Source of the DNA: an uncultured bacterium
GTDB lineage: Bacteria > Acidobacteriota > JAQAZP01
Direction of reading: 5' to 3'
DNA length: 64,000 bases
Assembly: GCA_965531145.1 (NCBI GenBank)
Contig: CBESOE010000007.1
Span: 36-64,035, forward strand
This document shows, piece after piece, positions 15,325 to 33,211 of this stretch. The notes below the pieces were generated by a model, which was not told where the DNA came from, searched no databases, and saw only the letters and a list, made by a program, of their open reading frames with translations. The translations under genes and the position numbers were made by a program. Each line of letters starts with the position of its first letter. The stretch's first letter is position 1.

Positions 15325-15996
15325 ATGAACCAGCCCATCATCTCCCTGCAGCAGGTCTCGCGTGAATACCGCGAAATGCGGGTCACTGCTCTGGCGGGCC
15401 TGTCCCTCGACATCCATCGCCGGGAATACGTGGCCGTCCAGGGCCCCAGCGGCAGCGGCAAGTCCACCCTGCTGCACCTGATGTGCGGGTTGGACCGGCC
15501 CAGCAGCGGACGCGTTCTTTTTGAGGGCGTGGAGCCATGTTCCGCCGGCGAATGGACCAGGCTTCGCGCTGGCCGCATCGGTATTGTCTTCCAGGCCTTC
15601 CACCTCATTTTCTCCCTGACGGCAAGGGAGAATGTGGAGCTTCCCATGATCGGTGTGATCAGGGATTCCGCCGAGAGGCGGCGGCGTACCGCTGATGTGC
15701 TCGGACGCGTCGGGCTGGCGAAACGCGGGCACCACCGGGTCAACGAACTCTCCGGGGGTGAGCGGCAACGGGTGGCCATCGCCCGGAGCCTCGCCAATTC
15801 TCCGGACGTGATTCTTGCCGATGAACCCACAGGAAATCTCGACTCGCAGTCATCGGCGGTGGTGCTCGATCTGCTGCTCGATATCCACCGCAGCGAGCAG
15901 GCCACCCTTGTGGTGGTGACCCATGATGCGGACGTTTCCCGGCAGGCGAGCCGGGTGCTCCACATTCTCGACGGGCGGCTTCAATCAGCCGGGTAA
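15325..15996 (+). CDS. ABC transporter ATP-binding protein (LolD/MacB-type)
   Basis: Walker [13 protein letters not shown] signature LSGGERQRVAIAR. Walker B ILADEPTGNLD. Confidence 0.85.
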   Translation: MNQPIISLQQVSREYREMRVTALAGLSLDIHRREYVAVQGPSGSGKSTLLHLMCGLDRPSSGRVLFEGVEPCSAGEWTRLRAGRIGIVFQAFHLIFSLTARENVELPMIGVIRDSAERRRRTADVLGRVGLAKRGHHRVNELSGGERQRVAIARSLANSPDVILADEPTGNLDSQSSAVVLDLLLDIHRSEQATLVVVTHDADVSRQASRVLHILDGRLQSAG

Positions 15997-16014
15997 CGGA
16001 GGGCTTTTCCGCAC

Positions 16015-17136
16015 ATGCGCTTTCTGACAATGCCGATCCGCAACCTGCGGCGCCATCCGGCGCGTACCTACCTCACCTGCGCGATTATCGCGGCCGCGGT
16101 GGCCAGCTTCATCGCCCTGGTGGGCATTTCCCGCGGCCTGGAGCGCGCCTGGATCACCTCTCTGGAGGAGAAAGGCACCCACATCCTGGCGGTGCGCAAG
16201 GGGGCCATCGAGATTCTGACGGCTTCCATTGACGAAGCAGTTGCCGACACCCTGCGAAGCATCGACGGTGTTGCCGGGGTTTCGGGTGAGCTCCTGGACC
16301 TGGTGGAGCTGGAAACCGGCGATGTGGCGCTGCTCAGCGGCTGGCCCTCCGGCAGCTACTTCTGGCAATCACTCCATATCCTCGAAGGGAAACTCCCCGA
16401 TCCGGACGATGCGCGCGACGCCATTGTGGGGCAAACCCTGGCCGCGCAATTGGGCTGCAGCGTGAACGACACGATTCTGCTCCAGGGCCGGGAGTTTCGC
16501 ATCTGCGGGATTTCCCGTCATTCCAGTGTCATCTCCAACGGCAGCATCGTTCTCCCCCTGCCGGCCATGCAGGAGCTCATGGAGCGCACCGGCAAGGTGA
16601 CCAGCTTTAACATACGTGTGGACCACCCCGGCAACATGGCAGCGGTTTCCACGATCCGCGGCCGTCTCGCCGCCGCCTGTCCGGAACTCAGCTTCAACGA
16701 GACAGGGGAAATCGCGGAAAACAACCATGTGCTGCGTCTGCTGCGCGCCACCGCCTGGAGCACCTCATTCGTGGCGCTGGCCATGGCCCTCATCGTGGTG
16801 GTGAACACGCTGCTGATGACCATCACCGAAAGGACCTATGAGATCGGTGTGCTTTCGGCAGTGGGGTGGCGCTCCACCCGGATCATGGCCATGGTGGTCC
16901 TGGAAGGTTTGCTGATGGCGGCGCTGGGAACGCTCTGCGGGGCGCTGCTGGGGATCGGGACCCTGCACTGGCTGGTGGCGCGCCCGGAAGTTTACGGCCT
17001 GCTGGAACCGCGGGTCACCCCGGCGATGATTGTCGAAATCGCTGCCGCCGCGCTGCTGCTCGGTTTCCTCGGCAGTATCTATCCGGCCTGGCGTGCCGTA
17101 CGCCTCAATCCCGTGGAGGCCCTGAGGCGCGACTAG
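16015..17136 (+). CDS. ABC transporter permease, FtsX/MacB/LolE family (4-TM with periplasmic domain)
   Basis: N-terminal TM helix, a large periplasmic domain, then three C-terminal TM helices with an FtsX-type signature (LAMALIVVVNTLLMTITERTYEIGVL). Confidence 0.8.
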   Translation: MRFLTMPIRNLRRHPARTYLTCAIIAAAVASFIALVGISRGLERAWITSLEEKGTHILAVRKGAIEILTASIDEAVADTLRSIDGVAGVSGELLDLVELETGDVALLSGWPSGSYFWQSLHILEGKLPDPDDARDAIVGQTLAAQLGCSVNDTILLQGREFRICGISRHSSVISNGSIVLPLPAMQELMERTGKVTSFNIRVDHPGNMAAVSTIRGRLAAACPELSFNETGEIAENNHVLRLLRATAWSTSFVALAMALIVVVNTLLMTITERTYEIGVLSAVGWRSTRIMAMVVLEGLLMAALGTLCGALLGIGTLHWLVARPEVYGLLEPRVTPAMIVEIAAAALLLGFLGSIYPAWRAVRLNPVEALRRD

Positions 17137-18055
17137 ACCGGCGGAAGAACAGGCGCGGCAGGCCGGGCACCATGGAGATTCCGCAGCGGAAGGCGGTCTG
17201 GCCGATGTTGAACTTCCACCCGCCGCCGAGATCTCCGGAATCGTAGAAGCGCAGCGAGTCCTTCAAGTGGATCTCCCAGGCCTGCAGCAGCAGCCCGGGG
17301 ATTGTTCCCTCATGCCGTGGAAGCCTCCGGAGCGCATCATCGATGAGGTTCCGGTCGGTCTTCCGGATCAGCTTGAGCGATGCCAGGGTGGCCTGCCCGA
17401 GTTCGACATCCTCCTCCCGGTCATAGATGTCGTCGGCGATTTGTGAGGCGGCGCCGAAATCGTAGGCGGCCTGGCAGAGATCGGAACTCAGTTCGGGGTC
17501 CTCGCTGATGGAAAACAGGGCGAAGGATAGCCCTCCCTTGTCATAGGTCGAGGCCCGCAGCCGGTCTTCATCCACAGTTTCAACGGTGGCCTGCCGGAAA
17601 CAGTCCATGGTTGCCGTGCTGATCCCCTTGAACAGAGGCAGTGCCCTGGCCCAGCATCCGGGATTGAGCCGGCGGAAGACGTTCAGGGAATTCCTGGCGG
17701 CGCCGATGGCGTCTGGCCAGCCGTTGCGATCGGCCTCCCACGGGCCGGTATCCAGTACCCTGTCCAGGCGGGGCCAATCCCGGAAATGTTCCTCGTCCAC
17801 GGCATTGTCGTAGGCCGCAGCGATACAGGCCAGCAGGAACGCTGTCTCATAGTCCCGGCCCGGGCGGCCATACAGCACCTGGTGCCACGATTCGATTCCC
17901 ATCAGGTTGCCGATGACCTTGTTGCGGATCGCCGGGCGGGAAAAATAGCTGATCCCGCCATTGGCACCCAGAAGCGATTTCAGGAAATGCCGGTAATGGG
18001 ATTTGTGAAAGAGGATCCTCGAGAGCACGTACTTTGCAATGGGCAGTCGGGTCAT
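17105..18055 (-). CDS. Squalene/phytoene synthase-like (head-to-head isoprenoid synthase fold) protein
   Basis: GAASQIADDIYDREEDVELGQ resembles the second Asp-rich motif of squalene/phytoene synthases (G.A.Q..NI.RD..ED...GR). An upstream ETVDED is first-motif-like. The match is divergent. Confidence 0.4.
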   Translation of the reverse strand: MTRLPIAKYVLSRILFHKSHYRHFLKSLLGANGGISYFSRPAIRNKVIGNLMGIESWHQVLYGRPGRDYETAFLLACIAAAYDNAVDEEHFRDWPRLDRVLDTGPWEADRNGWPDAIGAARNSLNVFRRLNPGCWARALPLFKGISTATMDCFRQATVETVDEDRLRASTYDKGGLSFALFSISEDPELSSDLCQAAYDFGAASQIADDIYDREEDVELGQATLASLKLIRKTDRNLIDDALRRLPRHEGTIPGLLLQAWEIHLKDSLRFYDSGDLGGGWKFNIGQTAFRCGISMVPGLPRLFFRRSSRASGPPRD

Positions 18056-18074
18056 GTGGAACCGGTGAGTAGAC

Positions 18075-18875
18075 TCAGTTTCGTGAGAGGCCTTTGCCTG
18101 CTTCCTTCAGATTCGCCGAGGCCGTCAGGTCCCGGGGGCTGAAATTCCCCCTCGCCGGAACGGCAGCGGGACTGTCGCTGTGGAGCTTGAACCCCAGGAT
18201 GTAGCCCATGGCGCAGGGGTGGACAGCCCCGTAGAGGAATGCCCACGCCAACTCTTCCAACGGGACGCCGAAGCCGTGGTAACCGGTCAGGTTCTGGATG
18301 TTCCATTGCTGCAGCCAGTGGGGCCACAGGGTAAATCCAGCTTTTATCAGAATAAAATAGGCCAGCGAAAAGCTGATGGCCCCGACGGCCGAAGCGGGCC
18401 AGATGTCCTTCATGGGTTTCTTCAGCACCAGTGCGATGCCCAGCATGCCGAACAGTGCCGCCGCCATGACCGGCATCCCCATCTGGCGAAGAACCAGCAG
18501 GCCGGCGAGAAAAGGCAGGAAGACCAGTGCATACCGTCTCATCATCGACGGCAGGTTGATGGTCCAACTGTAAGACCCCCGGAAGGGGGCATAGGCCAGG
18601 GTGCAGGCGATGATCCCCACTGAAAAAGAAAACAGAATGTCTTCCACACCGATGATGAAGGTGCTGAGCCTCACCGGATGCCAGTAGTCCGGAACAAAGA
18701 AGATTTCCAGCACCGCCGCCGGGGCGGCCAGCACTCCGCAGAGCAGGGTGGGCTTGCGATGGTTGTCGACCAGGACCAGGCAGGTGAGGGCCGCACAAAA
18801 CAGCATCAGGCTGAAAAATAAATAGGGGTAAGTCTGCAGGAAATTCACAAACAGGTCTTTCGCAGAGGCAACCAC
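18075..18875 (-). CDS. Lycopene cyclase domain-containing membrane protein (CrtYcd-like, two repeats)
   Basis: Polytopic membrane protein with two copies of the h-P-x-E-E-h motif (GVEDILFSF; GVPLEELAWAF), typical of heterodimeric-type lycopene cyclase domains. Confidence 0.4.
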   Translation of the reverse strand: MVASAKDLFVNFLQTYPYLFFSLMLFCAALTCLVLVDNHRKPTLLCGVLAAPAAVLEIFFVPDYWHPVRLSTFIIGVEDILFSFSVGIIACTLAYAPFRGSYSWTINLPSMMRRYALVFLPFLAGLLVLRQMGMPVMAAALFGMLGIALVLKKPMKDIWPASAVGAISFSLAYFILIKAGFTLWPHWLQQWNIQNLTGYHGFGVPLEELAWAFLYGAVHPCAMGYILGFKLHSDSPAAVPARGNFSPRDLTASANLKEAGKGLSRN

Positions 18876-19026
18876 CGAGGTCTATCAGGATGTGGTACCA
18901 TAAAATACGTTCGCGCCCGCTTCCGGGGCCCCGCTTCCGGGGCCCGGCAAATCATTCTAGCCGATGGGGTGACGGGGTCGCAACAAAACGCGGTTCCCGA
19001 CTATCGTGCGGCTACCGAGGGAGGGA

Positions 19027-19902
19027 ATGAGCCAGATCCGTTGCCAGGCAATCGAGCCGCTGGACGGAACGGGGCCCACAGTGCTCACCGTGGACGTGGA
19101 GGAGTGGTTCCACGTCTGCGGCGTGCCGGGTCTCGAGGGCCCTGAGCAGTGGGCTTCGCTTCCGAGCCGGGTGGACGCCGACGTGGACCGGCTGTTGGAA
19201 CTCTTCCAGCGGTCCGGCGCCCGGGCCACCTTTTTCGTTCTGGGCTGGCTGGCTGAAACCCGGCCAGGCCTGGTGTCCCGCATCGCAGAGGCCGGTCACG
19301 AGATCGCCAGCCACGGCCACCTGCACCAGCCGGTGAACCTCCTGGATCCGGAGACGTTCGAGGAGGATCTCGTCCGCTCGCTGGCCGTGCTGCACACCCG
19401 GACCGGGGCGGTGGTATCGGGATACCGGGCGCCCATGTGGTCCATCGGGGTGGGAGCAACGCCCTGGGCCTTCGAGATCATGGCCCGGCACGGCATCACC
19501 AGGGATTCGAGCCTCATCCGCGCCCCGGTTATCGGGGAGCCGGGTCACCCGCGGGAGGCCTGCAAACTTCTCCTGGACACCGGGGGCTGCCTGCGGGAAT
19601 TCCCGCCGCTGGCCGGTCGGCTCTTCGGGGTGGACGGTGTCTTTCTCGGTGGGGCCTGGCCGCTGCGTCTCTTTGGTCCCCGCCGGGCGATACGGGCGGC
19701 CCGGAAACTGACCGCCCGCGGCCTGCCCGCGGTCTTTTTCCTCCACCCCTGGGAACTGGACCCCGACCCACCGCGTTTTCCCATGCCCCGGGCCCAGCGG
19801 TTCGTCCACTATGCCGGTCTGAAACGTGGCCGGAATGTGTGGGAAACCATGCTCCGCGAACTGCCGTTCGTTTCCCTCGGTGAGGCGGCCAGATCTGCTT
19901 GA
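19027..19902 (+). CDS. Polysaccharide deacetylase family protein of the XrtA/PEP-CTERM-associated type (DUF3473-like)
   Basis: VLTVDVEEWFHV N-terminus and an NodB-type His/Asp set (EIASHGHLH). Strong RBS GGAGGGA at 19014-19024 ahead of the ATG at 19027. The family assignment is recalled from the TIGR03006-like family. Confidence 0.65.
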   Translation: MSQIRCQAIEPLDGTGPTVLTVDVEEWFHVCGVPGLEGPEQWASLPSRVDADVDRLLELFQRSGARATFFVLGWLAETRPGLVSRIAEAGHEIASHGHLHQPVNLLDPETFEEDLVRSLAVLHTRTGAVVSGYRAPMWSIGVGATPWAFEIMARHGITRDSSLIRAPVIGEPGHPREACKLLLDTGGCLREFPPLAGRLFGVDGVFLGGAWPLRLFGPRRAIRAARKLTARGLPAVFFLHPWELDPDPPRFPMPRAQRFVHYAGLKRGRNVWETMLRELPFVSLGEAARSA

Positions 19903-19932: not shown

Positions 19933-19961
19933 TTGACACTCCGCCGGGTGGAACCTACAAT
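19933..19961 (+). promoter_or_regulatory. Sigma-70-like promoter for the fab-like operon (-35 TTGACA, 17-nt spacer, -10 TACAAT)
   Basis: TTGACA at 19933-19938 and TACAAT at 19956-19961, lying 80 nt upstream of the fabD-like start. Confidence 0.45.
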
Positions 19962-20040
19962 GCCCGGTGGACCGAAACAGGATATCCGGGGTGTCCGGCG
20001 GGGCTCTCCCGGTGACGATTGGCAGGTCACAGGAGTGGCG

Positions 20041-20946
20041 ATGAGGGCTTTTTTTTTCCCCGGCCAGATGTCCGAACACCCGGAGATGTGGCACAACCTG
20101 AAGGGCCGGGTGCCCGGGGCCGAGATGTGGCTCCAGCGTGCTCAAACGGCCTCCGGTCTGCCGTTGGCCGATTCCCTGGGTCGGGGGAGCGCCAAAAACG
20201 TCGACGACCTCACCGCCCAGGTGGCGGTGCTGGCGGTCAACGCAGCCTATGCCGCCTACCTGCGCCTCCGTGGTGTGGAACCGGCGGCCGTGGCCGGGCA
20301 CAGCCTCGGTTGCTACTCCGCCCTTGAGGCGGCCGGTGTGCTCCGCTTCGAGGATGCGGTGGGCATCGCGGTCAAGGTGCAGCAACTGGCAGAGCACGAG
20401 CTTGCCGGGTTTGATGGGGCCATGGGCGTGCTGATCGGCCACGGGCCGGAGAAGGTTGACCATGCCTGCGCTGCCGCGGGGAACGACGAGGCCATGGTGG
20501 CCAACGTCAACACGGCGAAGCAAGTGGTGATCTCGGGGCACGCGGCGGCGGTTGATGCGGTGCTCGCGGCTCTGGCTGAAAACTCCATGCGGGCGGAACG
20601 GTTGCATACGCGGATCCCGTTTCACAGCCGCTGGATGCAGCCGGTGGTGGACCGGCTGCTGGTCGAGGTGGACCCGGCGCTGTTCAGCCAGCCGCGGCTG
20701 ACGGTCTATTCGCATCTTGACGGCAGCCGTGTGGACACAGCTGCCGCGGCGCACCGGCTGATCTGCACCCAGATTGCCCGGCCGCTCTACTGGCCCCGGG
20801 CGCTGGAAGCCATGCGGGACGGTGGCTGCCGCCGTTTTGTCGAGGTGGGGCCCGGCGAGGTGCTGAGCCGCATGACCCGCTGGGTACTGCGTGACGTCGA
20901 GGTACAGACGGCGGAGAAGAACTTTGAGGATTTGCTCGGGGGCTGA
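20041..20946 (+). CDS. fabD: Malonyl-CoA:ACP transacylase
   Basis: FFFPGQMSEHPEM N-terminus. Active-site GHSLGCYSALEAAG. RBS AGGAG upstream of the ATG at 20041. The ORF track starts earlier at 19933, which is probably spurious. Confidence 0.85.
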   Translation: MRAFFFPGQMSEHPEMWHNLKGRVPGAEMWLQRAQTASGLPLADSLGRGSAKNVDDLTAQVAVLAVNAAYAAYLRLRGVEPAAVAGHSLGCYSALEAAGVLRFEDAVGIAVKVQQLAEHELAGFDGAMGVLIGHGPEKVDHACAAAGNDEAMVANVNTAKQVVISGHAAAVDAVLAALAENSMRAERLHTRIPFHSRWMQPVVDRLLVEVDPALFSQPRLTVYSHLDGSRVDTAAAAHRLICTQIARPLYWPRALEAMRDGGCRRFVEVGPGEVLSRMTRWVLRDVEVQTAEKNFEDLLGG

Positions 20947-21011
20947 ACAGCTCCCGATAACGATGTATCGTGCGCGGCCGGCGGGCCGGCCCGAGAGGAG
21001 TGGATCACACG

Positions 21012-21284
21012 ATGAGCGAGGATGACAAGTCGCTTTCCCTGAAAATGAAGAACCTGATCGTCAACCGGCTGAAGCTGGAGATCGAACCCGAAGAGATCGA
21101 GAATGACCAGACCCTGTTCGGTGAAGGGCTGGGCCTCGATTCCATCGATGCCCTCGAACTGGTGCTTGGCCTGGAACAGGAGTTCGGGGTCAAGATCGAG
21201 GACGAGGAGGTGGGGGTCAAGGCCTTTGCCTCCATCGATGCCCTGGTCGCCTTTGTCAAGGAGAAGGGTGTTCAATCCGCATGA
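21012..21284 (+). CDS. acpP: Acyl carrier protein
   Basis: About 90 aa and acidic. Phosphopantetheine attachment motif GLDSIDALEL. RBS GAGGAG upstream. Confidence 0.85.
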   Translation: MSEDDKSLSLKMKNLIVNRLKLEIEPEEIENDQTLFGEGLGLDSIDALELVLGLEQEFGVKIEDEEVGVKAFASIDALVAFVKEKGVQSA

Positions 21285-21763
21285 GCACAACCACCGGCGA
21301 CCTGGAGATACTGGACGCTCTGCCCCACCGCAGCCCGTTCCTGATGGTCGACCGGATCGTGGAACGCCGCGGAGGACACTCCTGCCTGGCACTGAAAAGG
21401 GTTTCTTTCGGTGATCCCTTCCTCCGCATCGGTTCCGGGGTGGTGCCGCCGGAACTGAATCCCTTTTTTCTGGTGGAGGCCATGTCGCAGACCGCGGCCC
21501 TGGCCGCCGTGGACCCGGACAACGGTTCGGCCCTGCCTGCCGGTGCGGGGCCCGGGCCTCCGCTGGTGGGCTTCCTCGCAGCCATACGGAATTTTCGGAC
21601 CCTGCGGCCGGCGGTACCCGGCGATACACTGGAGATCCGGGCCGAGGTGGTGGGCCGCTTCGGCGGGCTGGTCAAGGTGGTGGGTACGGTGGAGGTGGAC
21701 GGTGAGCTGATCGGTGAAGCCGAGCTGACACTCAGCGTTCCCCGAGAGGTGGAGAACGGGTGA
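21281..21763 (+). CDS. Hotdog-fold 3-hydroxyacyl-ACP dehydratase (FabZ/FabA-like)
   Basis: LPHRSPFLMVDRIVE matches the FabZ N-terminal motif (LPHRYPFLLVD). 160 aa. Its start overlaps the ACP stop (ATGA). Confidence 0.7.
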   Translation: MSTTTGDLEILDALPHRSPFLMVDRIVERRGGHSCLALKRVSFGDPFLRIGSGVVPPELNPFFLVEAMSQTAALAAVDPDNGSALPAGAGPGPPLVGFLAAIRNFRTLRPAVPGDTLEIRAEVVGRFGGLVKVVGTVEVDGELIGEAELTLSVPREVENG

Positions 21764-23022
21764 CCAACGAGGTGACCAACGAGAAGACGGCAGTTGCTTC
21801 CCGCCGGGTGGTGATCACCGGGTTGGGGGCGGTTTCCGCGCTGGGCCCCGATGTGCCGTCCCTGCTTGCCGGGGTTGTGGAGGGCCGCTGCGGTATCCGG
21901 CCGGTGACCCTCTTCGACACCTCACCATTTCGCACACACACCGGTGGGGAACTGCTTGGATTTGATGCCGGGGCCCACTTCAGCCGGCGCGAACAGCGGC
22001 GGCTCTCCCGGGCCGACATGGCCGGGCTGGTGGCGGCCGCGGAAGCCCTGGGCGGCGCCCGGGCCGGCTCCGGGCCGATCTGCGATCCGGACCGGGTGGG
22101 CGTTATTCTCGGCGGCGGCGTTGGGGGGCTTTTCGACAGCGAGGCCTATTACCGCACAGTGCTGGGCCGGGGTTGGAAATCGGTGCCCGCCACCCGGGCC
22201 CTGGGACATTTCCCCTGCGCCACGGCCGACCGCATCGCCGAGCGCTGGGGCTTCGGCGGTCTGCGCACCACCGTGGTCACCGCCTGCTCGTCCAGCACGC
22301 TGGCCATCGGCCAGGCATTCGACGCCATCCGCACCGGGGCGGTGGAGATGGCGGTCACCGGCGGCAGCGATACCCTGAGCCGCCTGACCTACAGCGGGTT
22401 CAATTCCCTCCGCTCGGTGGACCCCGATGTCTGCCGGCCCTTCGACGCCGGCCGCAAGGGACTCTCCCTGGGCGAGGGGGCGGCCATCCTGGTCCTCGAG
22501 CCGCTGGACGTGGCCCTGGATCGCGGTGCCCCGATCCACGGGGAGGTGCTGGGCTGTGGCATGTCCTCGGACGCCCACCACATGACCGCACCGCACCCGC
22601 AGGGGGAGGGGGCAGCCCTGGCCATGGAGCGGGCCATCAGCCAGGCCGGGCTGGTTCCCGGGCAGGTGGACTACATCAATGCCCACGGCACCGGGACCCC
22701 GCACAACGACCTCGCCGAAACCAGGGCGATCCACCGCACCTTCGGCGAGAATGGGAAATCGATCCCGGTGAGCTCCACCAAGTCGATGCTGGGCCACTGT
22801 CTCGGTTCCGCCGGCGCCATGGAGGCCCTGGTCACCATCCTCGCCCTGCGGGACCGGTTCATTCCGCCCACGGCCAACCTGGAGCAGCCCGACCCGGAGT
22901 GCGACCTGGCCCATGTGCCACTGGTCAGCCGGCCGGGGACTCCCGAGGTGGGGATATCCAACTCCTTTGCTTTTGGCGGCAACAACGGCTGTCTGGTCCT
23001 GAGGAGATACCATGAGCTCTGA
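21760..23022 (+). CDS. fabF: Beta-ketoacyl-ACP synthase (KAS I/II type, catalytically complete)
   Basis: Active-site Cys in VVTACSSSTLAIG. His-His in NAHGTGTPHND and KSMLGHCLGSAG. GTG start overlapping the upstream stop (GTGA). Confidence 0.85.
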   Translation: MTNEVTNEKTAVASRRVVITGLGAVSALGPDVPSLLAGVVEGRCGIRPVTLFDTSPFRTHTGGELLGFDAGAHFSRREQRRLSRADMAGLVAAAEALGGARAGSGPICDPDRVGVILGGGVGGLFDSEAYYRTVLGRGWKSVPATRALGHFPCATADRIAERWGFGGLRTTVVTACSSSTLAIGQAFDAIRTGAVEMAVTGGSDTLSRLTYSGFNSLRSVDPDVCRPFDAGRKGLSLGEGAAILVLEPLDVALDRGAPIHGEVLGCGMSSDAHHMTAPHPQGEGAALAMERAISQAGLVPGQVDYINAHGTGTPHNDLAETRAIHRTFGENGKSIPVSSTKSMLGHCLGSAGAMEALVTILALRDRFIPPTANLEQPDPECDLAHVPLVSRPGTPEVGISNSFAFGGNNGCLVLRRYHEL

Positions 23023-24265
23023 GACCCGGCCGGCCGAAACTGGAGTGGTGGTTACCGGCATGTCCGCCGTGTCGCCCATGGGAACCGGCAGTGAGCCGCT
23101 GCTCCGGGGGCTCTGGTCGGGGGAAAACGCCTGGCGTCCGGTCCCGGAGGGGCCCCTGGCGGGGCAGCGGGCCCGGCTGGCGGCCCTGGTCCAGGACTTC
23201 GAACCACGGGCGCACATCCCGGTGATGAAACTGCGCCGGATGGACAACTGCACCCGGTTCTCGGTGGTGGCCGCCCAGCTGGCTTTCGAGCACGCCGGCC
23301 TGGCGGAGGAGGACCTCTCCTCCTGCGGGGTCGTCTTCGGCACCGGCACCGCCGGCTCCACCTCGGTGGCCGAGTATCTTCAGGGACTGCTGGTGGACTC
23401 GGCGGAGGGGCAGTTCCCCATGCTCTTTCCCAACACCGTGCCCAATGCACCGGCCGGCCAGGTGGCCATCCGTTTCGGCATCCGCGGGCCCAACGCCACG
23501 GTGAGTCAGCGGGAGAGTTCCGGCCTGCACGCCCTGGCCCGGGCCGCGGAGTTCATCCGTCTCGGCCGATGCCACTGCGTGCTGGTGGCCGGGGTGGACG
23601 AGTATTCCACCGAGTTGCTGGCCTTCTACGACCGGATGGGCTTTCTCTCCCCGGGCCGCTCCGGAGGTGAGGAGTCCTGCCGGCCCTTTTCCGCACGCCG
23701 CAACGGCTGGATGGTGGGGGAGGGGGCCTATGCCCTGGTGCTGGAATCGGCCGATCACGCCCACCGGCGTGGTGCGCCGCTGCTGGGCCGCCTCCTCGGC
23801 ACCGGTTGGAGCGGCAGCACCTGCTCCACCTACCGCTGGCCCGAGGAGCACGACGCCTATGTCCGCTGCATGGGGGGGGCGCTCCGCAGCAGCGGCCTGG
23901 ACGCCGGTGCGCTGGGGGCGGTGATGGCGTCGGCCAACGGCAACCAGGTGCTGGACCGGATGGAGGCCCTGGCCCTGGGCGAACTGTTCGCTGACGGCGG
24001 CGGTATGCCGCCGGTCACCGCGGTGAAATCAATACTTGGCGAGTCGGGAGCCTGCGGTGTGGCCCAGGCCCTGGCGGCGCTGGGTGTGCTGGAGCGGGGC
24101 ACGGTGCCCCCCACCACCGGCGGCGAGGCCGGTGACGCCGGCGGCCCGCAGGTGAACCTGGTGACCGGTGAGGCGCTGCACCCGCCACGGGCTCCCGAAG
24201 CGGTGCTGGTGAACAGTTTCGCGTCCGGCGGCAGCAATGTCAGTATGGTGATCGCCCGCGGGTGA
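23012..24265 (+). CDS. Ketosynthase-like protein lacking the catalytic triad (chain-length-factor / KS-beta-like)
   Basis: Thiolase fold of KAS length. Where the catalytic Cys should be, the sequence reads TVSQRESSG (Gln/Glu instead of Cys). The two His motifs are also absent (ANGNQ; ILGESGACG). Overlaps the KS stop by 11 nt. Confidence 0.7.
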   Translation: MSSETRPAETGVVVTGMSAVSPMGTGSEPLLRGLWSGENAWRPVPEGPLAGQRARLAALVQDFEPRAHIPVMKLRRMDNCTRFSVVAAQLAFEHAGLAEEDLSSCGVVFGTGTAGSTSVAEYLQGLLVDSAEGQFPMLFPNTVPNAPAGQVAIRFGIRGPNATVSQRESSGLHALARAAEFIRLGRCHCVLVAGVDEYSTELLAFYDRMGFLSPGRSGGEESCRPFSARRNGWMVGEGAYALVLESADHAHRRGAPLLGRLLGTGWSGSTCSTYRWPEEHDAYVRCMGGALRSSGLDAGALGAVMASANGNQVLDRMEALALGELFADGGGMPPVTAVKSILGESGACGVAQALAALGVLERGTVPPTTGGEAGDAGGPQVNLVTGEALHPPRAPEAVLVNSFASGGSNVSMVIARG

Positions 24266-24296
24266 ATGGCCGCACCGGCGGCGGCGGAGGAGAGCG

Positions 24297-24779
24297 GTGG
24301 GAACCGAGAACAGCCCCCTGGGACGGCGCAACGCGGATGGCTGGTGGGAACTGAGGCTCCGTGTCCGCTTCTCCGAGGTCGATTCTTACGGGGTGGTCTG
24401 GCACGGTCGCTACCTCGCCTGGTTCGAGGAGGCGCGCAACGACCTGGCCCGCGGCTACGGGTTTACCCCGTCGGTGCTGGCCCGGAGCGGATACCAGCTG
24501 CCGGTGCGGGATGTTTCCCTGACCTTCAAATCACCGGCCGGCCTCGACGACGAGGTGCTGGTGGGCATTCTCTTCCATCCCACGGAAACCGCACTGATCG
24601 AGTTTGAATACCGGGTGGTGGATGCGGAATCCGGGCGGCTGATGGTCACCGGTAAGACCCGGCAGGTGGTCACGCGGGTTGATCACGAATTGTTGCTGAC
24701 CTACCCCCGGCCGATCCGGGAGGCCCTGGACCGTCTCAGGCAGGACCAGTCCGCATCGGGGGGCAACCATGAGCGGTGA
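24297..24779 (+). CDS. 4HBT/YbgC-type hotdog acyl-CoA/acyl-ACP thioesterase
   Basis: RFSEVDSYGVVWHGRYLAWFEEAR is the YbgC/4HBT catalytic-region signature. 160 aa. Confidence 0.65.
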   Translation: MGTENSPLGRRNADGWWELRLRVRFSEVDSYGVVWHGRYLAWFEEARNDLARGYGFTPSVLARSGYQLPVRDVSLTFKSPAGLDDEVLVGILFHPTETALIEFEYRVVDAESGRLMVTGKTRQVVTRVDHELLLTYPRPIREALDRLRQDQSASGGNHER

Positions 24780-25728
24780 ACGGAACGGCGATGCAGACCG
24801 TGCCCGCGTCCGCCCGGTCTGTCCCTCCTGCCGCAATTCCCTGGCGGCGGAGAGTGACGGGCCTTCCACCTGTTCGTCCTGCGGCGCCGTCTATTCCCGC
24901 ATCCCCTCCGGCCATCTGCGGCTTCTGCCCGGGGATGCCGGTGGCTTTCGGGACTGGTGGCTCGACGATGAGCAGAAACGGGCCCGGTTCATGGGCCAGT
25001 ATGTTGAACGCGAGGAAGCGGGGGAGCGGCGGCTGGCCCGGGAGTTCCTGCTCCCCCTGACCCGGCAGCTGGCCGGCCAGGGGCCGCTGCGGCGGGTGCT
25101 CTCCGTGGGCTGCGGTTCCGGTGAGGATCTGGAACTGCTGCGTGGAGCCGGCCTGGACACCTGCGGTGTGGACAGCGGCGGGCGCACCCTGCGCTGGGGG
25201 GACAAGGAACGTTCTCCGGACCGTTACTTCATGGCCGACGCGCTGCAGCTGCCGTTCACCGACGGCGAATTTGACCTGGCCTATTCCCTCGGGGTCATCG
25301 AGCACGTGGGCACGGTGGGGGACAGCCTGGAACTGGCCGCGGATGCCGGTGAACTGCGCCGGCGGTTTGCCGCTTCGGTGGCCCGGGTGGTTCGGCCCGG
25401 GGGCTGGATCTTCATCAGTTGCCCCAATCGCACCTTTCCCTTTGACTTCGCCCACGGCGCCGGACGTTTCGGGTTCCGCTTTCACGGTCCCGGAGACTTC
25501 CTCCTTTCCTACGGTGACGTGAAGCGGCTGTTCATCGACCATGCGGGCTGCCAGTCGATCCGGCCGCTCTCCATGAAGGGCTATCTCGACCTGGCCCAGG
25601 CCGCTGCCGGCGGGGGGATGCTGATGCGGATGGCCGCGCCGCTCTTCGGCCTTTACTTGCATGCATTGCCGCGGCCTCTTTATACTTCTCCGCTATACCC
25701 GGCTGTATTGGCCCTTATCAAACGCTGA
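24769..25728 (+). CDS. Class I SAM-dependent methyltransferase with N-terminal Cys4 zinc-ribbon
   Basis: CPSCRN...CSSCG ribbon. Motif I VLSVGCGSGEDL. Methyltransf_11-like post-I region (ADALQLPFTDGEFDLAYS). Confidence 0.7.
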   Translation: MSGERNGDADRARVRPVCPSCRNSLAAESDGPSTCSSCGAVYSRIPSGHLRLLPGDAGGFRDWWLDDEQKRARFMGQYVEREEAGERRLAREFLLPLTRQLAGQGPLRRVLSVGCGSGEDLELLRGAGLDTCGVDSGGRTLRWGDKERSPDRYFMADALQLPFTDGEFDLAYSLGVIEHVGTVGDSLELAADAGELRRRFAASVARVVRPGGWIFISCPNRTFPFDFAHGAGRFGFRFHGPGDFLLSYGDVKRLFIDHAGCQSIRPLSMKGYLDLAQAAAGGGMLMRMAAPLFGLYLHALPRPLYTSPLYPAVLALIKR

Positions 25729-25742: not shown

Positions 25743-26798
25743 ATGATCAAGCGAAACATCTGTGTGGTCACCTCCCACGTGCCGATGGTGTTCGGCGGGC
25801 ACCTGATCATCGCCCGTTCACTGGTCAGCGCCCTCAAGGACATGGGCTACAACTCGGATGTGATCTACACCCCCCAGAACCGTTTCGGGCGCCAGCTCTC
25901 GGCCTACCTGGCCAACCGGCTCACCGATGTGGGCCGTACCGGCGGCGACGAGGTGGTGGACCAGATCATCTCCCTGCGCTACCCCAGCTATGCGGTCAAG
26001 CACCCGCTCCACGTCTGCTGGCTGAACCACCGCATGCGCGAATACTACGATCTCTGGGAAGATTTCCTCGGGGTGATCCCCACCGGCAAGGGCAAACTCA
26101 AGGAGCGCTTCCGCCGCCGGCTGATCCAGCGGCTGGACAACCACCTGCTGAAGCGCAACGTGAAGAACCTCTACGTGATTTCGGGGACGATCAGGAAACG
26201 GCTGGAAACCTGGGGCGGGATCCCGGCCCAGGTGCTGCTGCCGCCGCCGCCCCTGGGCCGGGACTACCACACCGACAGTTACGAGAACTTCATCTTCACC
26301 GTGTCCCGCCTGCACAAGCTGAAGCGGATCAACCTGCTGCTGGACGCCTTCATGCTGGTGCGCGACACCGACGTCAAGTGCCTGATCGCCGGCGAGGGCG
26401 ACGAATACGACCGGCTGGCCAAGCGGATCAAGGACAACGATCTGGAGGGGCGGGCCATTCTCCTCGGCCGGGTGAGCGACCAGGAACTGGCCGACTACTA
26501 CGCCCGCTGCCGGGCGGTTTTCTTCGGGCCGCGGAACGAGGACTTCGGCTTCGTCACCATCGAGGCCTTCCGCAGCCGCAAGTGCGTCATCACCTGCCAT
26601 GACAGTGGCGGCCCGCTGGACCTGGTGGAAGACGGTGTTTCGGGTTTTATCACCCGGCCCGATCCCACCAGGATCGCCGAGCGGATCGACCAGCTGGTGG
26701 CCGATCCGGGCCTGGCCGAACGGATGGGCCAGGCGGGGTACGAGGCGAGTCTGCCGGTCACCTGGGAGAACGTGGTGCGGACACTGGTGAAGATATGA
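25743..26798 (+). CDS. Glycosyltransferase family 1 (GT4, GT-B fold)
   Basis: The C-terminal half carries the GT1 EX7E-type region (GFVTIEAFRSRKCVITCHDSGGPLDLVEDGVSGF). Confidence 0.75.
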   Translation: MIKRNICVVTSHVPMVFGGHLIIARSLVSALKDMGYNSDVIYTPQNRFGRQLSAYLANRLTDVGRTGGDEVVDQIISLRYPSYAVKHPLHVCWLNHRMREYYDLWEDFLGVIPTGKGKLKERFRRRLIQRLDNHLLKRNVKNLYVISGTIRKRLETWGGIPAQVLLPPPPLGRDYHTDSYENFIFTVSRLHKLKRINLLLDAFMLVRDTDVKCLIAGEGDEYDRLAKRIKDNDLEGRAILLGRVSDQELADYYARCRAVFFGPRNEDFGFVTIEAFRSRKCVITCHDSGGPLDLVEDGVSGFITRPDPTRIAERIDQLVADPGLAERMGQAGYEASLPVTWENVVRTLVKI

Positions 26799-27577
26799 TG
26801 ATCTCCGCGGGGCAACCGGCCCATCTCACGGTGGTGATCCCGGCCTACAACGAGGAGAAGCGGATCGGACCGACCCTGGAACGGATCTGCGGCTACCTGG
26901 AGAAGCGTTCCTATCCCTGGGAGATCGTGGTGGTCAATGACGGCAGCAGGGACGGGACGGTCCAGATCGCCAGGGAACTGCTGGCCGGCTGTGAACACCA
27001 CACGGTGATCGACCGCAAGTTCAACCGGGGCAAGGGCTACTCGGTGCGGCAGGGAATGCTGGCCGGCCGCGGGCGCTTCCTCCTCTTTTCCGACGCCGAT
27101 CTCTCCACGCCCATCGAGGACGTGGAGCGACTGCTGCCCCCCCTGGAGTCCAGGGAGGTGCAGGTGAGCATCGGTTCCCGGGCACTGCGTGACTCCCGGG
27201 TGGAGGTACACCAGCCCTGGTGGCGTGAGACCATGGGCAAGAGCTTCAACCTCTTCGTGCGGCTGATCGCCCTCGGCGGCCTCCACGACACCCAGTGCGG
27301 GTTCAAGTGCTTTACCCGCGAGGCGGCAAAGGCCATCTTCAGCGTGGCCCGCATCGACGGCTTCGGTTTTGACGTGGAAGCCCTGTACCTGGCCCGCAAG
27401 TTCGGCTACGGGGTCAAGGAGATCGGTGTGCGCTGGGTCAACTCGCCCGATTCGAAGGTCCACCCGCTCTCCGATTCGTCGCGGATGCTGGCCGATCTGC
27501 TGCGCATCCGTTTCACCGACCTCCGGGGAGGATACCGGTCCGGAAACGGCCTGGATCGCCGGGGGCGGCAAGGTTGA
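26795..27577 (+). CDS. Glycosyltransferase family 2 (polyprenyl-phosphate beta-glucosyltransferase-like)
   Basis: VVIPAYNEEKRI...VVVNDGSRDGT...FSDADLSTP are the GT-A signatures. Overlaps the GT1 stop (ATGA). Confidence 0.8.
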   Translation: MMISAGQPAHLTVVIPAYNEEKRIGPTLERICGYLEKRSYPWEIVVVNDGSRDGTVQIARELLAGCEHHTVIDRKFNRGKGYSVRQGMLAGRGRFLLFSDADLSTPIEDVERLLPPLESREVQVSIGSRALRDSRVEVHQPWWRETMGKSFNLFVRLIALGGLHDTQCGFKCFTREAAKAIFSVARIDGFGFDVEALYLARKFGYGVKEIGVRWVNSPDSKVHPLSDSSRMLADLLRIRFTDLRGGYRSGNGLDRRGRQG

Positions 27578-27605: not shown

Positions 27606-29291
27606 ATGCTCAGATGCACGGGATCCGGCAACAACTCCTGGCGGCTGTTCTGTCTCCTGCTGACCGTCCTGCTGCCGGCCTGGGGCTGGCTTGCCGGCTG
27701 CGGTACCCCGCCCGCTGAACAACCGGCGGTGGAGGGCCCGGTGCGTGGCGGGACCATGGTGGTGGGCTGGACCAACGACGCCGACGCGCTGAACCCGGTG
27801 GTCCAGCAGACCATGCTCGCCTCCCACGTCGATACCCTGATCTATCCCAACCCCACCACCGAGGTCTTCGAGGACTGCCGCCTCACCGTACAGCCCCTGC
27901 TGGCCGAGAGCTGGACCTTCGGCGAGGACGGCCTGTCGCTGACCATGAAACTGCGCACGGACGTGACCTGGGATGACGGTACGCCGGTCACCGCGGACGA
28001 CGTGATCCTGACCAACCAGCTGATGGCCGATCCGGATTCGGCCAGCCCGCGTTTCAACCAGACCGAGCGCATCGCCGCGGTGGAGAAGATCGACCAGCAA
28101 ACGGTGCTCTTCCGTTTCACCGAGCCCTACGACCAGGAAACCCAGCTCTACCACGCATCCCAGGACCTGCTGCCGGCGCACCTCTTCCGCGATGCCGACC
28201 GGAAGAACCTGCGCCGCCACCCGCTTAACGAAAACCCGGTGGGCGCCGGACCCTACCGGCTGGAACGCTGGGAGCGCAACCAGGAACTGGTGCTTTCCGC
28301 CAATGCCGAAGCCACCCTCACCGACCCGCCCTACATCGAGCGGGTGGTTTTCCGTGTTATCCCCGAGTACACCACCCGTCTCACCGAGTTGATCGTCGGG
28401 CGGTTGGACGTGATGGACGGACTGCAGCCGGAGGATGTGGATCGGCTGAAGCGGGAAAACCCCGAGATCCGCATCCTGCCCCGGGGCTGGCGTTTCATGG
28501 AATACGTGGCCTGGAACAACCTCGACCCGCTTTTCTCCGACCCGCGGGTGCGTCGGGCGCTGACCATGTGCATCGACCGTGACCTGCTGATCCAGGTGCT
28601 GCTCACCGGTGGCGGGGAGTGCTTTGGCCGGCCCTGCACCGGTACCATAACCCCGGAGCTCTGCGGGGCCTGCAACGAAAATATCGAGCCGCTGCCCCAC
28701 GACCCGAAAGCGGCCCGGGCCATGCTCAACGACCTCGGTTGGAAGGACCGTGACGGCGATGGTGTGCTGGACAAGGACGGCCAGCCGTTCGCCTTCACCC
28801 TCAGGACCAGCGCCGGCAACCCGCGCCGCGAACAGGCCAGCGTATTGATCCAGGCCCAGCTCAGGGAAGCCGGCCTGGATGTGGAGCTGGAGCAGCTGGA
28901 GGGGGTGGTGTTGCACGAAAAGATGCGGAACAAGGACTTCCAGGCCGTGCTGAGCGGCTGGTCCGTGGGACTCTATGTCGAGCCGCGGTCCTTCTGGCAC
29001 AGTGGCGACGAGTATGTCTACAACTTCACCTCCTACAGCAATGCCTCGGTGGACCGGCTGATCGAGGCCGGGGAGGGGGAGACCGACATCGAGGCGGCCA
29101 ACGCCATCTGGCACGAGGTGCAGGAAATGATTTACGAAGATCAGCCTTACACCTTCCTCTACTGGGTGAACAATCTGATGGCGATCCACCAGCGGTTCGA
29201 AGGGGTGGAGGCCAACCTGCTCACTCCGCTCTACCACCTGGAGCGATGGTGGGAGAACCCCGACTGGGAGCGTGAGTTGGACGGCAGTTAG
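27606..29291 (+). CDS. ABC transporter substrate-binding lipoprotein, family 5 (Opp/Dpp/Nik-like)
   Basis: Lipoprotein signal LAGCGTPP. SBP_bac_5-like length and conserved stretches. RBS AAGGGAGGA before the ATG at 27606. The ORF track start at 27369 overlaps the GT2 gene and is rejected. Confidence 0.8.
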   Translation: MLRCTGSGNNSWRLFCLLLTVLLPAWGWLAGCGTPPAEQPAVEGPVRGGTMVVGWTNDADALNPVVQQTMLASHVDTLIYPNPTTEVFEDCRLTVQPLLAESWTFGEDGLSLTMKLRTDVTWDDGTPVTADDVILTNQLMADPDSASPRFNQTERIAAVEKIDQQTVLFRFTEPYDQETQLYHASQDLLPAHLFRDADRKNLRRHPLNENPVGAGPYRLERWERNQELVLSANAEATLTDPPYIERVVFRVIPEYTTRLTELIVGRLDVMDGLQPEDVDRLKRENPEIRILPRGWRFMEYVAWNNLDPLFSDPRVRRALTMCIDRDLLIQVLLTGGGECFGRPCTGTITPELCGACNENIEPLPHDPKAARAMLNDLGWKDRDGDGVLDKDGQPFAFTLRTSAGNPRREQASVLIQAQLREAGLDVELEQLEGVVLHEKMRNKDFQAVLSGWSVGLYVEPRSFWHSGDEYVYNFTSYSNASVDRLIEAGEGETDIEAANAIWHEVQEMIYEDQPYTFLYWVNNLMAIHQRFEGVEANLLTPLYHLERWWENPDWERELDGS

Positions 29292-29317
29292 GGCCCGGGT
29301 AACTTGACGGAGGACGG

Positions 29318-31131: not shown

Positions 31132-31139
31132 GCGGGGCG

Positions 31140-32475: not shown

Positions 32476-33207
32476 ATGAGCGGAACGCAGGCGGGGCAGG
32501 AAAACGGCCTGATTTTCGACGCCCGGGGCCTGACCAAGGTCTACCACATGGGCGAGGTGGAGGTTCACGCCCTGCGTGGCGTGGATTTTCAGCTGCGTCA
32601 GTCGGAGTTCTCCGTGCTGCTGGGGCCCTCGGGCAGCGGCAAATCCACCCTGCTCAACATCCTCGGCGGGTTGGATACCCCCACTGCCGGCCAGGTCTTT
32701 TACCGCGGCAAAGAGATCACCCTGGTGGGCGACGCCGAGCTGACTCAGTATCGCCGGCACCATGTCGGTTTTGTCTTCCAGTTCTACAACCTGATTCCCA
32801 GTCTCACCGCCCGGGAGAACGTGGCCCTGGTCACCGAGATCGTGCCCGAACCGCTGACCCCGGTGGCGGCGCTGGAACTGGTGGGGTTGGGAGACCGGGT
32901 GGATCACTTCCCGTCCCAGCTCTCGGGCGGCGAGCAGCAGCGGGTGGCCATTGCCCGGGCCATCGCCAAACAGCCCGACGTGCTGCTCTGCGACGAGCCC
33001 ACCGGCGCCCTGGACGTCTCTACCGGCATCGTGGTGCTGGAGGCCATCGAGACGGTGAACCGCGAGCTGGGCACCACCACCGCGGTGATCACCCACAACG
33101 CGGCCATTTCCGAGATGGCCGATACGGTGTTGCGGCTCTCCAACGGCAAGATCGCTTCGGTGGAGCACAACACGACCAAGATCCACCCCCGAGAGCTTCA
33201 CTGGTGA
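32476..33207 (+). CDS. ABC transporter ATP-binding protein (MacB/DevA-type)
   Basis: Walker [13 protein letters not shown] signature [14 protein letters not shown]. Walker [20 protein letters not shown] upstream. Confidence 0.85.
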
Positions 33208-33211
33208 CACC

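Follow-up and report, generated by a model that had tools for sequence, protein, structure and literature searches.

What is made by a run of fatty-acid-synthase-like genes in which one of the two ketosynthases has lost its catalytic triad? The question is raised by a window of 64,000 nucleotides from an uncultured bacterium (the whole stretch of DNA analyzed here; GenBank assembly GCA_965531145.1, contig CBESOE010000007.1, positions 36 to 64,035 of the forward strand), in which six consecutive genes encode an acyltransferase (AT), an acyl carrier protein (ACP), a hotdog-fold dehydratase-like protein (DH), two ketosynthases (KS1 and KS2) and a thioesterase (TE). Judged from its sequence, this operon pairs an active, chain-building ketosynthase with a catalytically dead partner, and its product is predicted to be a specialized fatty or polyene chain that is probably destined for a sugar-bearing envelope lipid. 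We consider it reasonably likely that the conserved operon is a dedicated type II chain-building system derived from fatty acid synthase (FAS); within this reading we infer the heterodimer, the role of the AT, the borrowing of FabG, FabI and FabD and the nature of the product from the evidence set out below. The cassette would then be an orphan variant of the aryl polyene (APE) and "ladderane-type" clusters, and not part of ordinary fatty acid synthesis.

Biochemistry for pairs of a ketosynthase (KS) and a dead partner outside the classical polyketide synthases (PKSs) has only just become available, in one preprint on anammox bacteria (10.64898/2026.05.19.726425). Genome-mining tools tag many clusters of this general kind in non-anammox soil phyla as "ladderane" or "arylpolyene", with no product known for any of them (PMC7298704). 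The present locus is a compact, well-delimited and promoter-defined version from Acidobacteriota, a dominant and poorly cultured soil phylum, and it offers three testable active-site changes that are fixed in its clade: a partner with a Glu-Ser-Lys-Glu signature, an acyltransferase lacking Arg117 and a hotdog protein lacking its catalytic His.

The order and common strand of the six genes, as given in a preliminary description of the locus made from sequence alone, are borne out by Pfam and NCBIfam domain calls:

20041-20946, plus strand: AT, acyltransferase (Pfam Acyl_transf_1, 9.8e-26)
21012-21284, plus strand: ACP (Pfam PP-binding, 6.8e-12)
21281-21763, plus strand: DH, FabZ/ApeP-like hotdog protein (Pfam FabA, 7.9e-6)
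21760-23022, plus strand: KS1 (Pfam ketoacyl-synt N and C domains)
23012-24265, plus strand: KS2 (Pfam ketoacyl-synt N and C domains)
24297-24779, plus strand: TE, YbgC/4HBT thioesterase (Pfam 4HBT_2 and 4HBT)

The nearest genomic relatives are two contigs of Acidobacteriota metagenome-assembled genomes (L001 and L002), which have their gene order in common with the window over ~21 kb and encode proteins 74–96% identical to those of the window. A third relative, the metagenome locus L059, has the same gene order as the window and a KS2 that is 69% identical. Because L001 and L002 share gene order and this level of protein identity, with which L059 agrees, the source is assigned to an uncultured Acidobacteriota lineage; the G+C content of the window is 59–71%. 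The gene order of the cassette is kept in all three relatives, and the ratio of nonsynonymous to synonymous substitution rates (dN/dS) against L001 and L002 is 0.14–0.29 for the six genes. The genes for AT (0.18–0.21), DH (0.19–0.22) and KS2 (0.26) are not decaying.

An Intact Ketosynthase and a Triad-Less Partner

KS1 carries the motifs ACSSS, HGTGT and GHCLG, on which the preliminary description had based an intact triad, and its Cys-His-Lys-His residues are complete in alignment. KS2, said there to lack the triad, does lack it: against FabF structures, Cys163 is replaced by Glu, His303 by Ser and His340 by Glu, with Lys335 kept, so the retention of Cys/His/His that a careful alignment might have revealed was not found. 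This Glu-Ser-Lys-Glu signature is conserved across the KS2 family, and KS2 is a full-length protein of 417 aa that aligns with FabF over residues 12–413. KS1 scores 410.8 bits against the FabF equivalog model (cutoff 493.75) and lies above the cutoff of the PRK07314 subfamily (399.5 vs 387). By BLASTP it is 39% identical to E. coli FabF, 34% to ApeO and 33% to ApeR; it matches actinorhodin KSα at 223.7 bits, vs ~320 for FabFs, and its best match in the PDB is chain B of 9s5h (328.6 bits).

A neighbor-joining tree of 41 sequences with 200 bootstraps was built with E. coli FabF, FabB, ApeO and ApeR, T. thermophilus FabF and both chains of 9s5h as references, the actinorhodin, Iga and xanthomonadin ketosynthases lying outside this set. 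All triad-less partners form one clade with 100% bootstrap support, and its 19 sequences comprise KS2 and its orthologues, the partners encoded at loci L060, L062, L087 and L063, the database relatives P0012-P0034 and chain C of 9s5h. Members share 'SAN' at the site of the first His and 'K...GE' at that of the second, and KS2 belongs to a Glu-type subclade with 76% support. KS1 and the partner KSs of L060, L062 and L087 make up one clade (94–98% bootstrap), and KS1 groups only weakly with ApeO (52–64%); the families of KS1 and KS2 form partly parallel, co-evolving clades. The possibility that both ketosynthases branch inside housekeeping FabF/FabB is thus not what the tree returns, in that KS2 sits in the triad-less clade and KS1 falls outside the FabF reference group, although the deep split that separates KS1 has only ~51% support. 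The likeness of KS2 to a KSβ or chain-length factor (CLF), which had also been proposed, holds insofar as KS2 is a triad-less partner, but its kin are a separate FabF-derived family and not the actinorhodin- or ApeC-type CLFs: the actinorhodin CLF is not among the best 60 PDB matches of KS2, and KS2 has no BLASTP similarity to ApeC.

Both sequence features of the FabF-derived family of KSs with triad-less partners are found here, namely an intact KS adjacent to a dead one and a place for the latter in the clade of 9s5h_C. The triad positions of 9s5h_C are Val/Asn/Glu, in agreement with the description of amxFabFmut (10.64898/2026.05.19.726425), and from these residues and the molecule names 9s5h is probably the anammox pair amxFabF2/amxFabFmut. 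That pair is a functional KS/CLF-like heterodimer that decarboxylates malonyl-ACP (10.64898/2026.05.19.726425). The partner encoded at the Omnitrophota locus L063 matches 9s5h_C at 389.5 bits.

Natural gene fusions bear on the pairing of KS1 and KS2. A profile of the KS2 family was searched against 1.84 billion representatives; because giant modular PKSs top the list, their several KS domains adding up, the search is uninformative on family size, and it returned four more Glu-type singletons together with eleven KS-KSβ fusions of ~800–830 aa (P0245, P0264, P0268, P0270, P0318, P0326, P0327, P0331, P0334, P0342 and P0360). Their N-terminal halves are KS1-like (37–45% identity) and their C-terminal halves KS2-like (26–34%), so that the fusion order, KS then KSβ, is that of the KS1 and KS2 genes. 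The fusions carry an intact KS, and the triad is lost in the C-terminal domain of P0245, the one fusion in which that domain was examined. They lend what may be called Rosetta-stone support to a physical KS1-KS2 pair and, together with the dN/dS values of the cassette, argue for a working heterodimer; the 11-nt overlap of the KS1 and KS2 genes suggests translational coupling. The central proposal of the preliminary description, a dedicated non-housekeeping chain builder, is upheld by this intact KS standing beside a full-length triad-less KS and a private ACP.

The Acyltransferase, Carrier Protein and Hotdog Proteins

The first gene of the cassette had been called FabD. Its product has the FabD fold and, aligned to PDB FabD structures, keeps Gln11, Ser92 and His201, but the malonyl-binding Arg117 is Val; GQGSQ is altered to GQMSE, and the score against the NCBIfam model TIGR00128 (fabD) is 168 bits, below its cutoff of 260.9. 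Position 117 is Val in all 12 members of the AT clade and Arg in all 109 other homologues and in E. coli FabD. Identity is at least 66% within the clade and then drops to at most 39% for ordinary FabDs, those of Acidobacteriota included, which are 34–39% identical to AT. In FabD and in FAS and PKS acyltransferases, loss of this Arg abolishes the preference for malonyl and favors monocarboxylic acyl groups. Because Arg117 is lost in the whole clade, AT is not a canonical malonyl transferase. Genes for an AMP-ligase are present in the more distantly related clusters of L149, L060 and the L074 type and in APE clusters, and are absent from the window-type loci, which carry AT; this complementary distribution fits AT as, most likely, the loader of a non-carboxylated starter.

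The ACP has the serine motif DSI. Its best NCBIfam match, NF006617, falls short of the cutoff (66.5 vs 70 bits), as does its match to the AcpP equivalog (47.4 vs 70.45), and by BLASTP it is 42% identical to E. coli ApeE vs 36.5% to AcpP. The third protein had been described as a dehydratase. Its catalytic Glu is retained (LVEAMSQ), but the GHFP position has no catalytic His, alignments to FabZ structures placing Ser there, and the match to the FabZ equivalog (78.5 bits) is below the cutoff of 113. The His is also missing, with no shared residue at the site, in the three orthologues, in L060 and in E. coli ApeP, and it is kept in ApeI and in ordinary FabZs. The L059 orthologue carries the PF22817 ApeP-like domain, and DH appears to be an ApeP-like half-enzyme without the catalytic His.

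The 4HBT identity of the last protein stands: TE is borderline against TIGR00051 (68.4 bits, cutoff 68.7), and it has the hotdog fold and the N-terminal catalytic Asp of the YbgC/4HBT class, the conserved Asp aligning in PDB entries 6fdg and 5v10. The role in release that had been assigned to it is less secure, as TE is ApeK-like (32% identical to E. coli ApeK) and work on ApeK favors proofreading or assistance over simple release (PMC8253772).

Relation to Housekeeping Fatty Acid Synthesis and Aromatic Polyketide Synthases

Each of the six proteins falls in a FAS-II or PKS-II superfamily, and KS1 passes its subfamily cutoff, so the cassette might be read as the primary fatty acid synthase of the organism or as a minimal aromatic type II PKS. 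Either would be hard to reconcile with the sequences. Housekeeping FAS-II membership fails because equivalog cutoffs, catalytic residues and companion genes all fail: the cutoffs for FabF, FabD, AcpP and FabZ are missed, AT, DH and KS2 have the altered active sites given above, and FabH, FabG and FabI are not encoded alongside. The cassette family is limited to ~11 sequence clusters, set apart from ordinary FabDs by the gap in identity described for AT. The sequences also speak against an aromatic type II PKS: KS2 has Glu where Gln is typical of CLFs, a domain search found no cyclase or aromatase domain in the region, and KS1 scores lower against actinorhodin KSα than against FabFs. We regard this pair of alternatives as hardly tenable.

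The preliminary description noted that FabH and an adjacent FabG were missing, and indeed no FabH, FabG or FabI is encoded between 14.6 and 32.2 kb of the window. A lone FabG-like short-chain dehydrogenase/reductase (SDR) lies 37 kb away (61936-62676, minus strand); it is 44% identical to E. coli FabG, matches TIGR01830 at 277 bits (cutoff 297.75), stands alone and not in a fab operon, and is the only ketoreductase (KR) candidate in the window. No housekeeping fab operon occurs in the 64 kb. A tblastn search of the window at E<=0.01 found no ApeI, FabH, LPLAT, AMP-ligase, LolA, MMPL transporter or PHP protein, and its sole match to an ApeQ-type KR was the distant SDR.

Operon Layout, Promoter and Leader

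Two features precede the AT gene:

19933-19961, plus strand: sigma-70-type promoter TTGACA-17-TACAAT (11/12 positions match)
20003-20040, plus strand: conserved hairpin in the 5' untranslated region (5'UTR; RNAalifold consensus stem)

The six genes had been thought to overlap throughout, and this is so for three of the five internal junctions: ACP and DH overlap by 4 nt (ATGA), DH and KS1 by 4 nt (GTGA), and KS1 and KS2 by 11 nt. The AT and ACP genes are separated by 65 nt (23 nt if ACP starts at GTG 20970), and the KS2 and TE genes by 31 nt. The promoter proposed earlier is present, and it is strong. The 64-kb window has two sites of at least its quality, where Markov simulations predict 0.03, and across L001, L002 and L059 (69–84% protein identity) the -35 box does not vary and the -10 box is conserved. 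A conserved GTTAAGACCTTGTG box lies directly upstream of its -35 hexamer. The second 11/12 sigma-70 match, TTGACA-17-TATATT, is at 51796-51824 on the plus strand, and the TTG of its -35 box is taken by a mechanical list of open reading frames (ORFs) as the start of ORF 51796-53001. Position 19933 itself, earlier given as the start of the cassette, is promoter; the TTG with which the mechanical list opens an ORF there belongs to the -35 box, that ORF is an artifact, and the conserved start is ATG 20041.

The leader hairpin is formed by CTCCCGGTGAC...GTCNCNGGAG, and its 3' arm covers the probable Shine-Dalgarno sequence, ~8 nt before ATG 20041. The stem is kept in four sequences (the window, L001, L002 and L059) with little covariation (RNAalifold), and a search of the 5'UTR against Rfam gave no family match. 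The hairpin may be a translational control element.

Extent of the Cluster and its Sugar Genes

Although the unit had been taken to begin at 19933, it probably begins upstream of the promoter, with a glycosyltransferase (GT) and a deacetylase gene, and probably extends beyond TE:

14634-15311, plus strand: GT2a, small GT2 glycosyltransferase of 225 aa (Pfam Glycos_transf_2, 1.2e-22)
19006-19902, plus strand: polysaccharide deacetylase with DUF3473 (Pfam Polysacc_deac_1 and DUF3473)
24769-25728, plus strand: methyltransferase (MT; Methyltransf_11 and Methyltransf_23)
25743-26798, plus strand: GT4 (group 1) glycosyltransferase (Glycos_transf_1, 1.9e-32)
26795-27577, plus strand: GT2b, second small GT2 glycosyltransferase (Glycos_transf_2, 6.3e-30)

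The MT gene overlaps TE by 11 nt, GT4 follows after a 14-nt gap, and GT2b overlaps GT4 by 4 nt. MT has an N-terminal Cys4 motif, keeps its position in L001, L002 and L059, and has no BLASTP similarity to ApeB. GT4 is 93–95% identical to its orthologues, with a dN/dS of ~0.1, and the NCBIfam matches of GT2b (AglJ, PpgS and ArnC) are all far below cutoffs. The suggestion in the preliminary description that downstream enzymes tailor the product gains from these junctions, and the co-transcribed MT and glycosyltransferases probably act on it.

Upstream, the best NCBIfam matches of GT2a are AglJ and PpgS, both far below cutoffs; it is 28% identical to the N-terminal domain of E. coli ApeJ (E=6e-18) and seems to resemble polyprenyl-phosphate synthases of N-acetylhexosamine (HexNAc) or hexose. 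The deacetylase matches TIGR03006 at 205 bits (cutoff 276) and the NodB model at 1.5e-9. Synteny with the close relatives is too extensive for them to mark the limits of the cluster, and more distant KS/KSβ loci were therefore used. GT2a homologues 31–45% identical are found in the distant clusters of L060, L149 and the L074 type, and a deacetylase homologue that is 45% identical lies inside the distant L062 cluster, homologues of the L062 protein (61–65% identical to it) occurring in L074-type soil loci. In L059, the GT2a and deacetylase genes are adjacent and directly precede AT. GT2a and the DUF3473 deacetylase are probable cluster members; since their homologues recur in distant clusters, the unit probably reads GT2a-deacetylase-(promoter)-AT-ACP-DH-KS1-KS2-TE-MT-GT4-GT2b.

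Between GT2a and the deacetylase, the slot at 15325-18875 encodes an ABC ATPase, a LolCE/MacB-like permease, a 316-aa protein of unassigned family and a Lycopene_cyc-like membrane protein. The same slot holds a MazF/PemK toxin in L002, a 1042-aa beta-helix/BACON protein in L001 and nothing in L059. As these contents are unrelated or missing, the slot is an insertion site and not part of the cluster, and the ABC/LolCE-like and Lycopene_cyc-like genes were rejected as members.

The distant loci differ from one another in content. L060 encodes an LPLAT, an AMP-ligase, a PHP protein, a B12-radical-SAM enzyme, a GT2, an ACP, an ApeP-like DH, a KS and a KSβ. L149, which carries the sister group of KS2, encodes an AMP-ligase, a halogenase-like flavoenzyme, an ACP, a 131-aa ORF, a KS, a KSβ, a 227-aa GT2 and a CDP-alcohol phosphatidyltransferase. 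The L062/L074 type is an abundant soil-metagenome cluster with 381 tblastn-confirmed matches, of which 80 loci were kept (L062, L074, L087, L111, L135 and ~75 others); a locus search with a narrow alignment returned only this family. Its longer loci, pooled, encode an AMP-ligase, a His-bearing FabZ, an LPLAT, a small GT2, LolA, a full-length Glu-type KSβ, a KR, an ACP, a DUF3473 deacetylase, a 975-aa TP_0789-like protein, a PHP protein and a KS, and it is apparently an uncharacterized APE-like lipid cluster family. In all these clusters the KS is 43–49%, the KSβ 35–39% and the ACP 42–51% identical to that of the window, and the partner has the Glu-Ser-Lys-Glu signature; a very abundant type of soil-metagenome cluster thus belongs to the same family. 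They differ from the window in carrying an AMP-ligase and, variously, LPLAT, LolA, KR, PHP, TP_0789-like, radical-SAM and halogenase-like genes, and in lacking its AT, thioesterase, methyltransferase and GT4.

These comparisons bear on the possibility that the KS/KSβ and sugar genes are mere neighbors, such that a free unusual fatty or polyene acid is released by TE and the GT2, deacetylase, GT4 and second GT2 work in an unrelated pathway for an envelope polysaccharide. The deacetylase comes closest to the XrtA/PEP-CTERM polysaccharide type, the promoter between deacetylase and AT makes the upstream genes a separate transcription unit, the slot behind GT2a accepts unrelated insertions, and the close relatives are too similar for a linkage test. 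Against this stand the GT2a and deacetylase homologues themselves, which recur in KS/KSβ clusters whose KS identity is 35–49% and whose content is otherwise different, and the overlap or close spacing of MT, GT4 and GT2b behind TE. We regard an accidental neighborhood as unlikely. The recurrent link of the KS pair to genes for a lipid-phosphate-HexNAc synthase and a deacetylase instead suggests where the chain is finally located.

Comparison with Aryl Polyene and Ladderane-Type Clusters

The APE system (ApeA-S; E. coli CFT073, Xenorhabdus) was represented by the E. coli CFT073 cluster (fetched as L065), with which proteins were compared by BLASTP. In these systems the end product is a polyene esterified to a GalNAc-1-phosphate-glycerol lipid; ApeJ installs the N-acetylgalactosamine (GalNAc) and the polyene, and ApeJ and ApeD build the APE lipid (10.1101/2020.12.19.423268). 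The cassette shares with them an ApeE-like ACP, an ApeK-like TE, a GT2 like the N-terminus of ApeJ and a His-less ApeP-like protein and, in its presumed logic, a KS with a dead partner and a chain finally attached to a hexosamine-phosphate lipid. A canonical aryl-polyene pigment cluster of the APE, xanthomonadin or flexirubin kind, in which a 4-hydroxybenzoate-type starter is extended to a polyene anchored in the outer membrane, would account for these likenesses, for the PF22817 match of the L059 orthologue and for the missing enoyl reductase (ER), which is compatible with a polyene. The APE core as used by Grammbitter et al. consists of ApeO, ApeR, the CLF ApeC, the ACPs ApeE and ApeF, the dehydratases ApeI and ApeP, the KR ApeQ and the transporter ApeM, and of these only ApeE-like, ApeP-like and ApeO-like (34%) proteins are present. 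By tblastn the window holds no ApeC, ApeI, ApeM or ApeH and no second APE-type KS or ACP, and the cluster holds no ApeQ-type KR; across the set, ApeH (starter adenylation), ApeQ, ApeR, ApeI, ApeD, ApeM, ApeL and ApeN have no counterpart in the window at E<=0.01, bar the distant SDR that also matches ApeQ. ApeG is missing as well, and AT, the deacetylase, GT4 and a second GT2 are found instead. The CLF ApeC is half-size and consists of a single thiolase-fold half (PMC8358021); KS2 has full length, and BLAST shows no relation between the two. KS1 is nearer to FabF than to ApeO, and MT is unrelated to ApeB. Because ApeC, ApeH, ApeI, ApeQ, ApeR and ApeM are absent, the cassette is not a canonical APE cluster, and we judge that explanation improbable.

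A ladderane-type pathway like anammox Cluster I would fit the solved relatives of the ketosynthases, 9s5h_B for KS1 and, by clade and SAN/GE signature, 9s5h_C for KS2, and it shares its core of an ACP, a FabZ-like protein and two FabF homologues with the cassette (10.64898/2026.05.19.726425). The anammox pair, probably that of 9s5h, likewise consists of an adjacent intact FabF-like KS and a full-length triad-less homologue with a private ACP and a FabZ-like protein, and its partner also keeps the Lys, has Glu at the second His position and 'SAN' at the first. The two systems differ in gene order, KS preceding KSβ here and amxFabFmut lying just upstream of amxFabF2 in anammox (10.64898/2026.05.19.726425), and at the Cys position, which is Glu in KS2 and Val or Thr in the anammox partner. 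Identity to the 9s5h chains is only 39% for KS1 and 28% for KS2, both of which lie in a different subclade, the host phylum differs, and the true relative of the anammox type is the Omnitrophota locus L063. Cluster I is characterized by genes for a B12-radical-SAM enzyme and a phytoene-desaturase-like protein, and neither occurs in the operon of the window, in L059 or in the conserved loci; the Arg-less AT, thioesterase, methyltransferase and glycosyltransferases of the window are in turn missing from Cluster I. With neither a radical-SAM enzyme nor a desaturase, the cassette does not qualify as Cluster I, and "ladderane" clusters called by antiSMASH in non-anammox phyla have no known ladderane product (PMC7298704), which makes a ladderane pathway highly improbable here.

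The rhizobial Nod-factor pathway offers a further parallel. NodF and NodE are a private ACP and KS that make an unusual acyl chain with the remaining FAS enzymes borrowed, and in the NodB/NodC/NodS branch a polysaccharide-deacetylase-family enzyme frees the amine of N-acetylglucosamine (GlcNAc) for N-acylation, alongside a GT2 and an S-adenosylmethionine (SAM) methyltransferase. The window likewise has a private ACP and KS, a deacetylase, a GT2 and a SAM methyltransferase, a likeness drawn as an analogy: there is no dead KS partner in the Nod system and no NodA-type acyltransferase here, and the GT2s of the window are small lipid-phosphate-sugar-synthase-like proteins, whereas that of the Nod system is a chitin-oligomer synthase.

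A Proposed Pathway

A dedicated chain builder remains the preferred reading. The locus encodes an intact KS next to a private ACP and, in an overlapping gene whose position suggests coupled translation, a conserved triad-less partner under selection; KS1 and KS2 would form a heterodimer with one active site in which KS2 shapes chain length. The chain would be elongated on the private ACP with malonyl units. The Arg117-less FabD paralogue would most likely load a non-carboxylated starter acyl group, in place of the AMP-ligase of related clusters; less likely, AT could off-load the finished chain. Malonylation, keto-reduction and any enoyl reduction would presumably be borrowed in trans from housekeeping FAS, through FabD, FabG and possibly FabI. 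The His-less ApeP-like hotdog protein may provide half a dehydratase site or otherwise handle the 3-hydroxy or enoyl intermediate; it would need a His-donating partner or would act unlike a normal dehydratase. The ApeK-like thioesterase would edit or release the chain.

For the fate of the chain, GT2a is predicted to put HexNAc on a lipid phosphate and the DUF3473 enzyme to deacetylate it, so that the lipid-phosphate hexosamine could receive the chain; GT4, GT2b and MT would then decorate the acylated aminosugar lipid. The end product may resemble APE lipid or a Nod factor as an acylated aminosugar lipid. More specifically, though this is speculative and rather doubtful, the locus could define an undescribed class of Acidobacteriota envelope glycolipid, in which a chain made by a Glu-type KS/CLF heterodimer is primed or finally transferred by the Arg-less FabD paralogue and amide-linked to a de-N-acetylated hexosamine on a lipid-phosphate carrier. 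In this role the paralogue would take the place of the adenylating loader or LPLAT that APE-type clusters have. If true, this would give the first handle on the products of the orphan "ladderane/APE-like" KS-KSmut clusters outside anammox bacteria and Proteobacteria.

Several observations weigh against the proposed chain builder and its pathway. Support for the split that keeps KS1 apart from housekeeping FabF is low, as given above. The preprint prints no PDB codes and does not state that 9s5h is the anammox pair (10.64898/2026.05.19.726425), for which reason the identity of the two stays a deduction. Eleven of the 12 members of the AT clade are basic at position 116, and this residue might partly substitute for Arg117. 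The cluster encodes neither a KR nor an ER nor an ApeI-like partner to donate the His, which leaves the reductive cycle an assumption and not an observation. The close relatives are too syntenic to separate operon neighbors, the Opp-like genes described below included, from true members, and much of the gene content of the more distant clusters, such as LPLAT, LolA, KR and PHP genes, is different.

Neighboring Genes

Behind GT2b, a co-directional run at 27618-32243 (plus strand), with gaps of at most 40 nt or 4-nt overlaps, encodes an Opp/Dpp-like solute-binding protein, two permeases that have no ATPase gene next to them and a protein of 371 aa that matches Glyco_trans_1_3 faintly. The OppB/C proteins are 92–96% identical in amino acids to those of the relatives, a higher conservation than that of the KS genes. 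Further downstream, an ABC ATPase, a 787-aa FtsX-type permease and an HlyD/DevB-like adaptor (32476-36777, plus strand) make up a MacAB/DevBCA-like exporter whose ATPase and permease are conserved in L001 and L002; it is conceivable that these genes encode a lipid or glycolipid exporter. On the minus strand, a 923-aa protein (55796-58567) has a weak match (1.6e-10, far below cutoff) to the model of the anammox Kustd1514-type S-layer glycoprotein, and a weak match to a TonB-receptor model as well.

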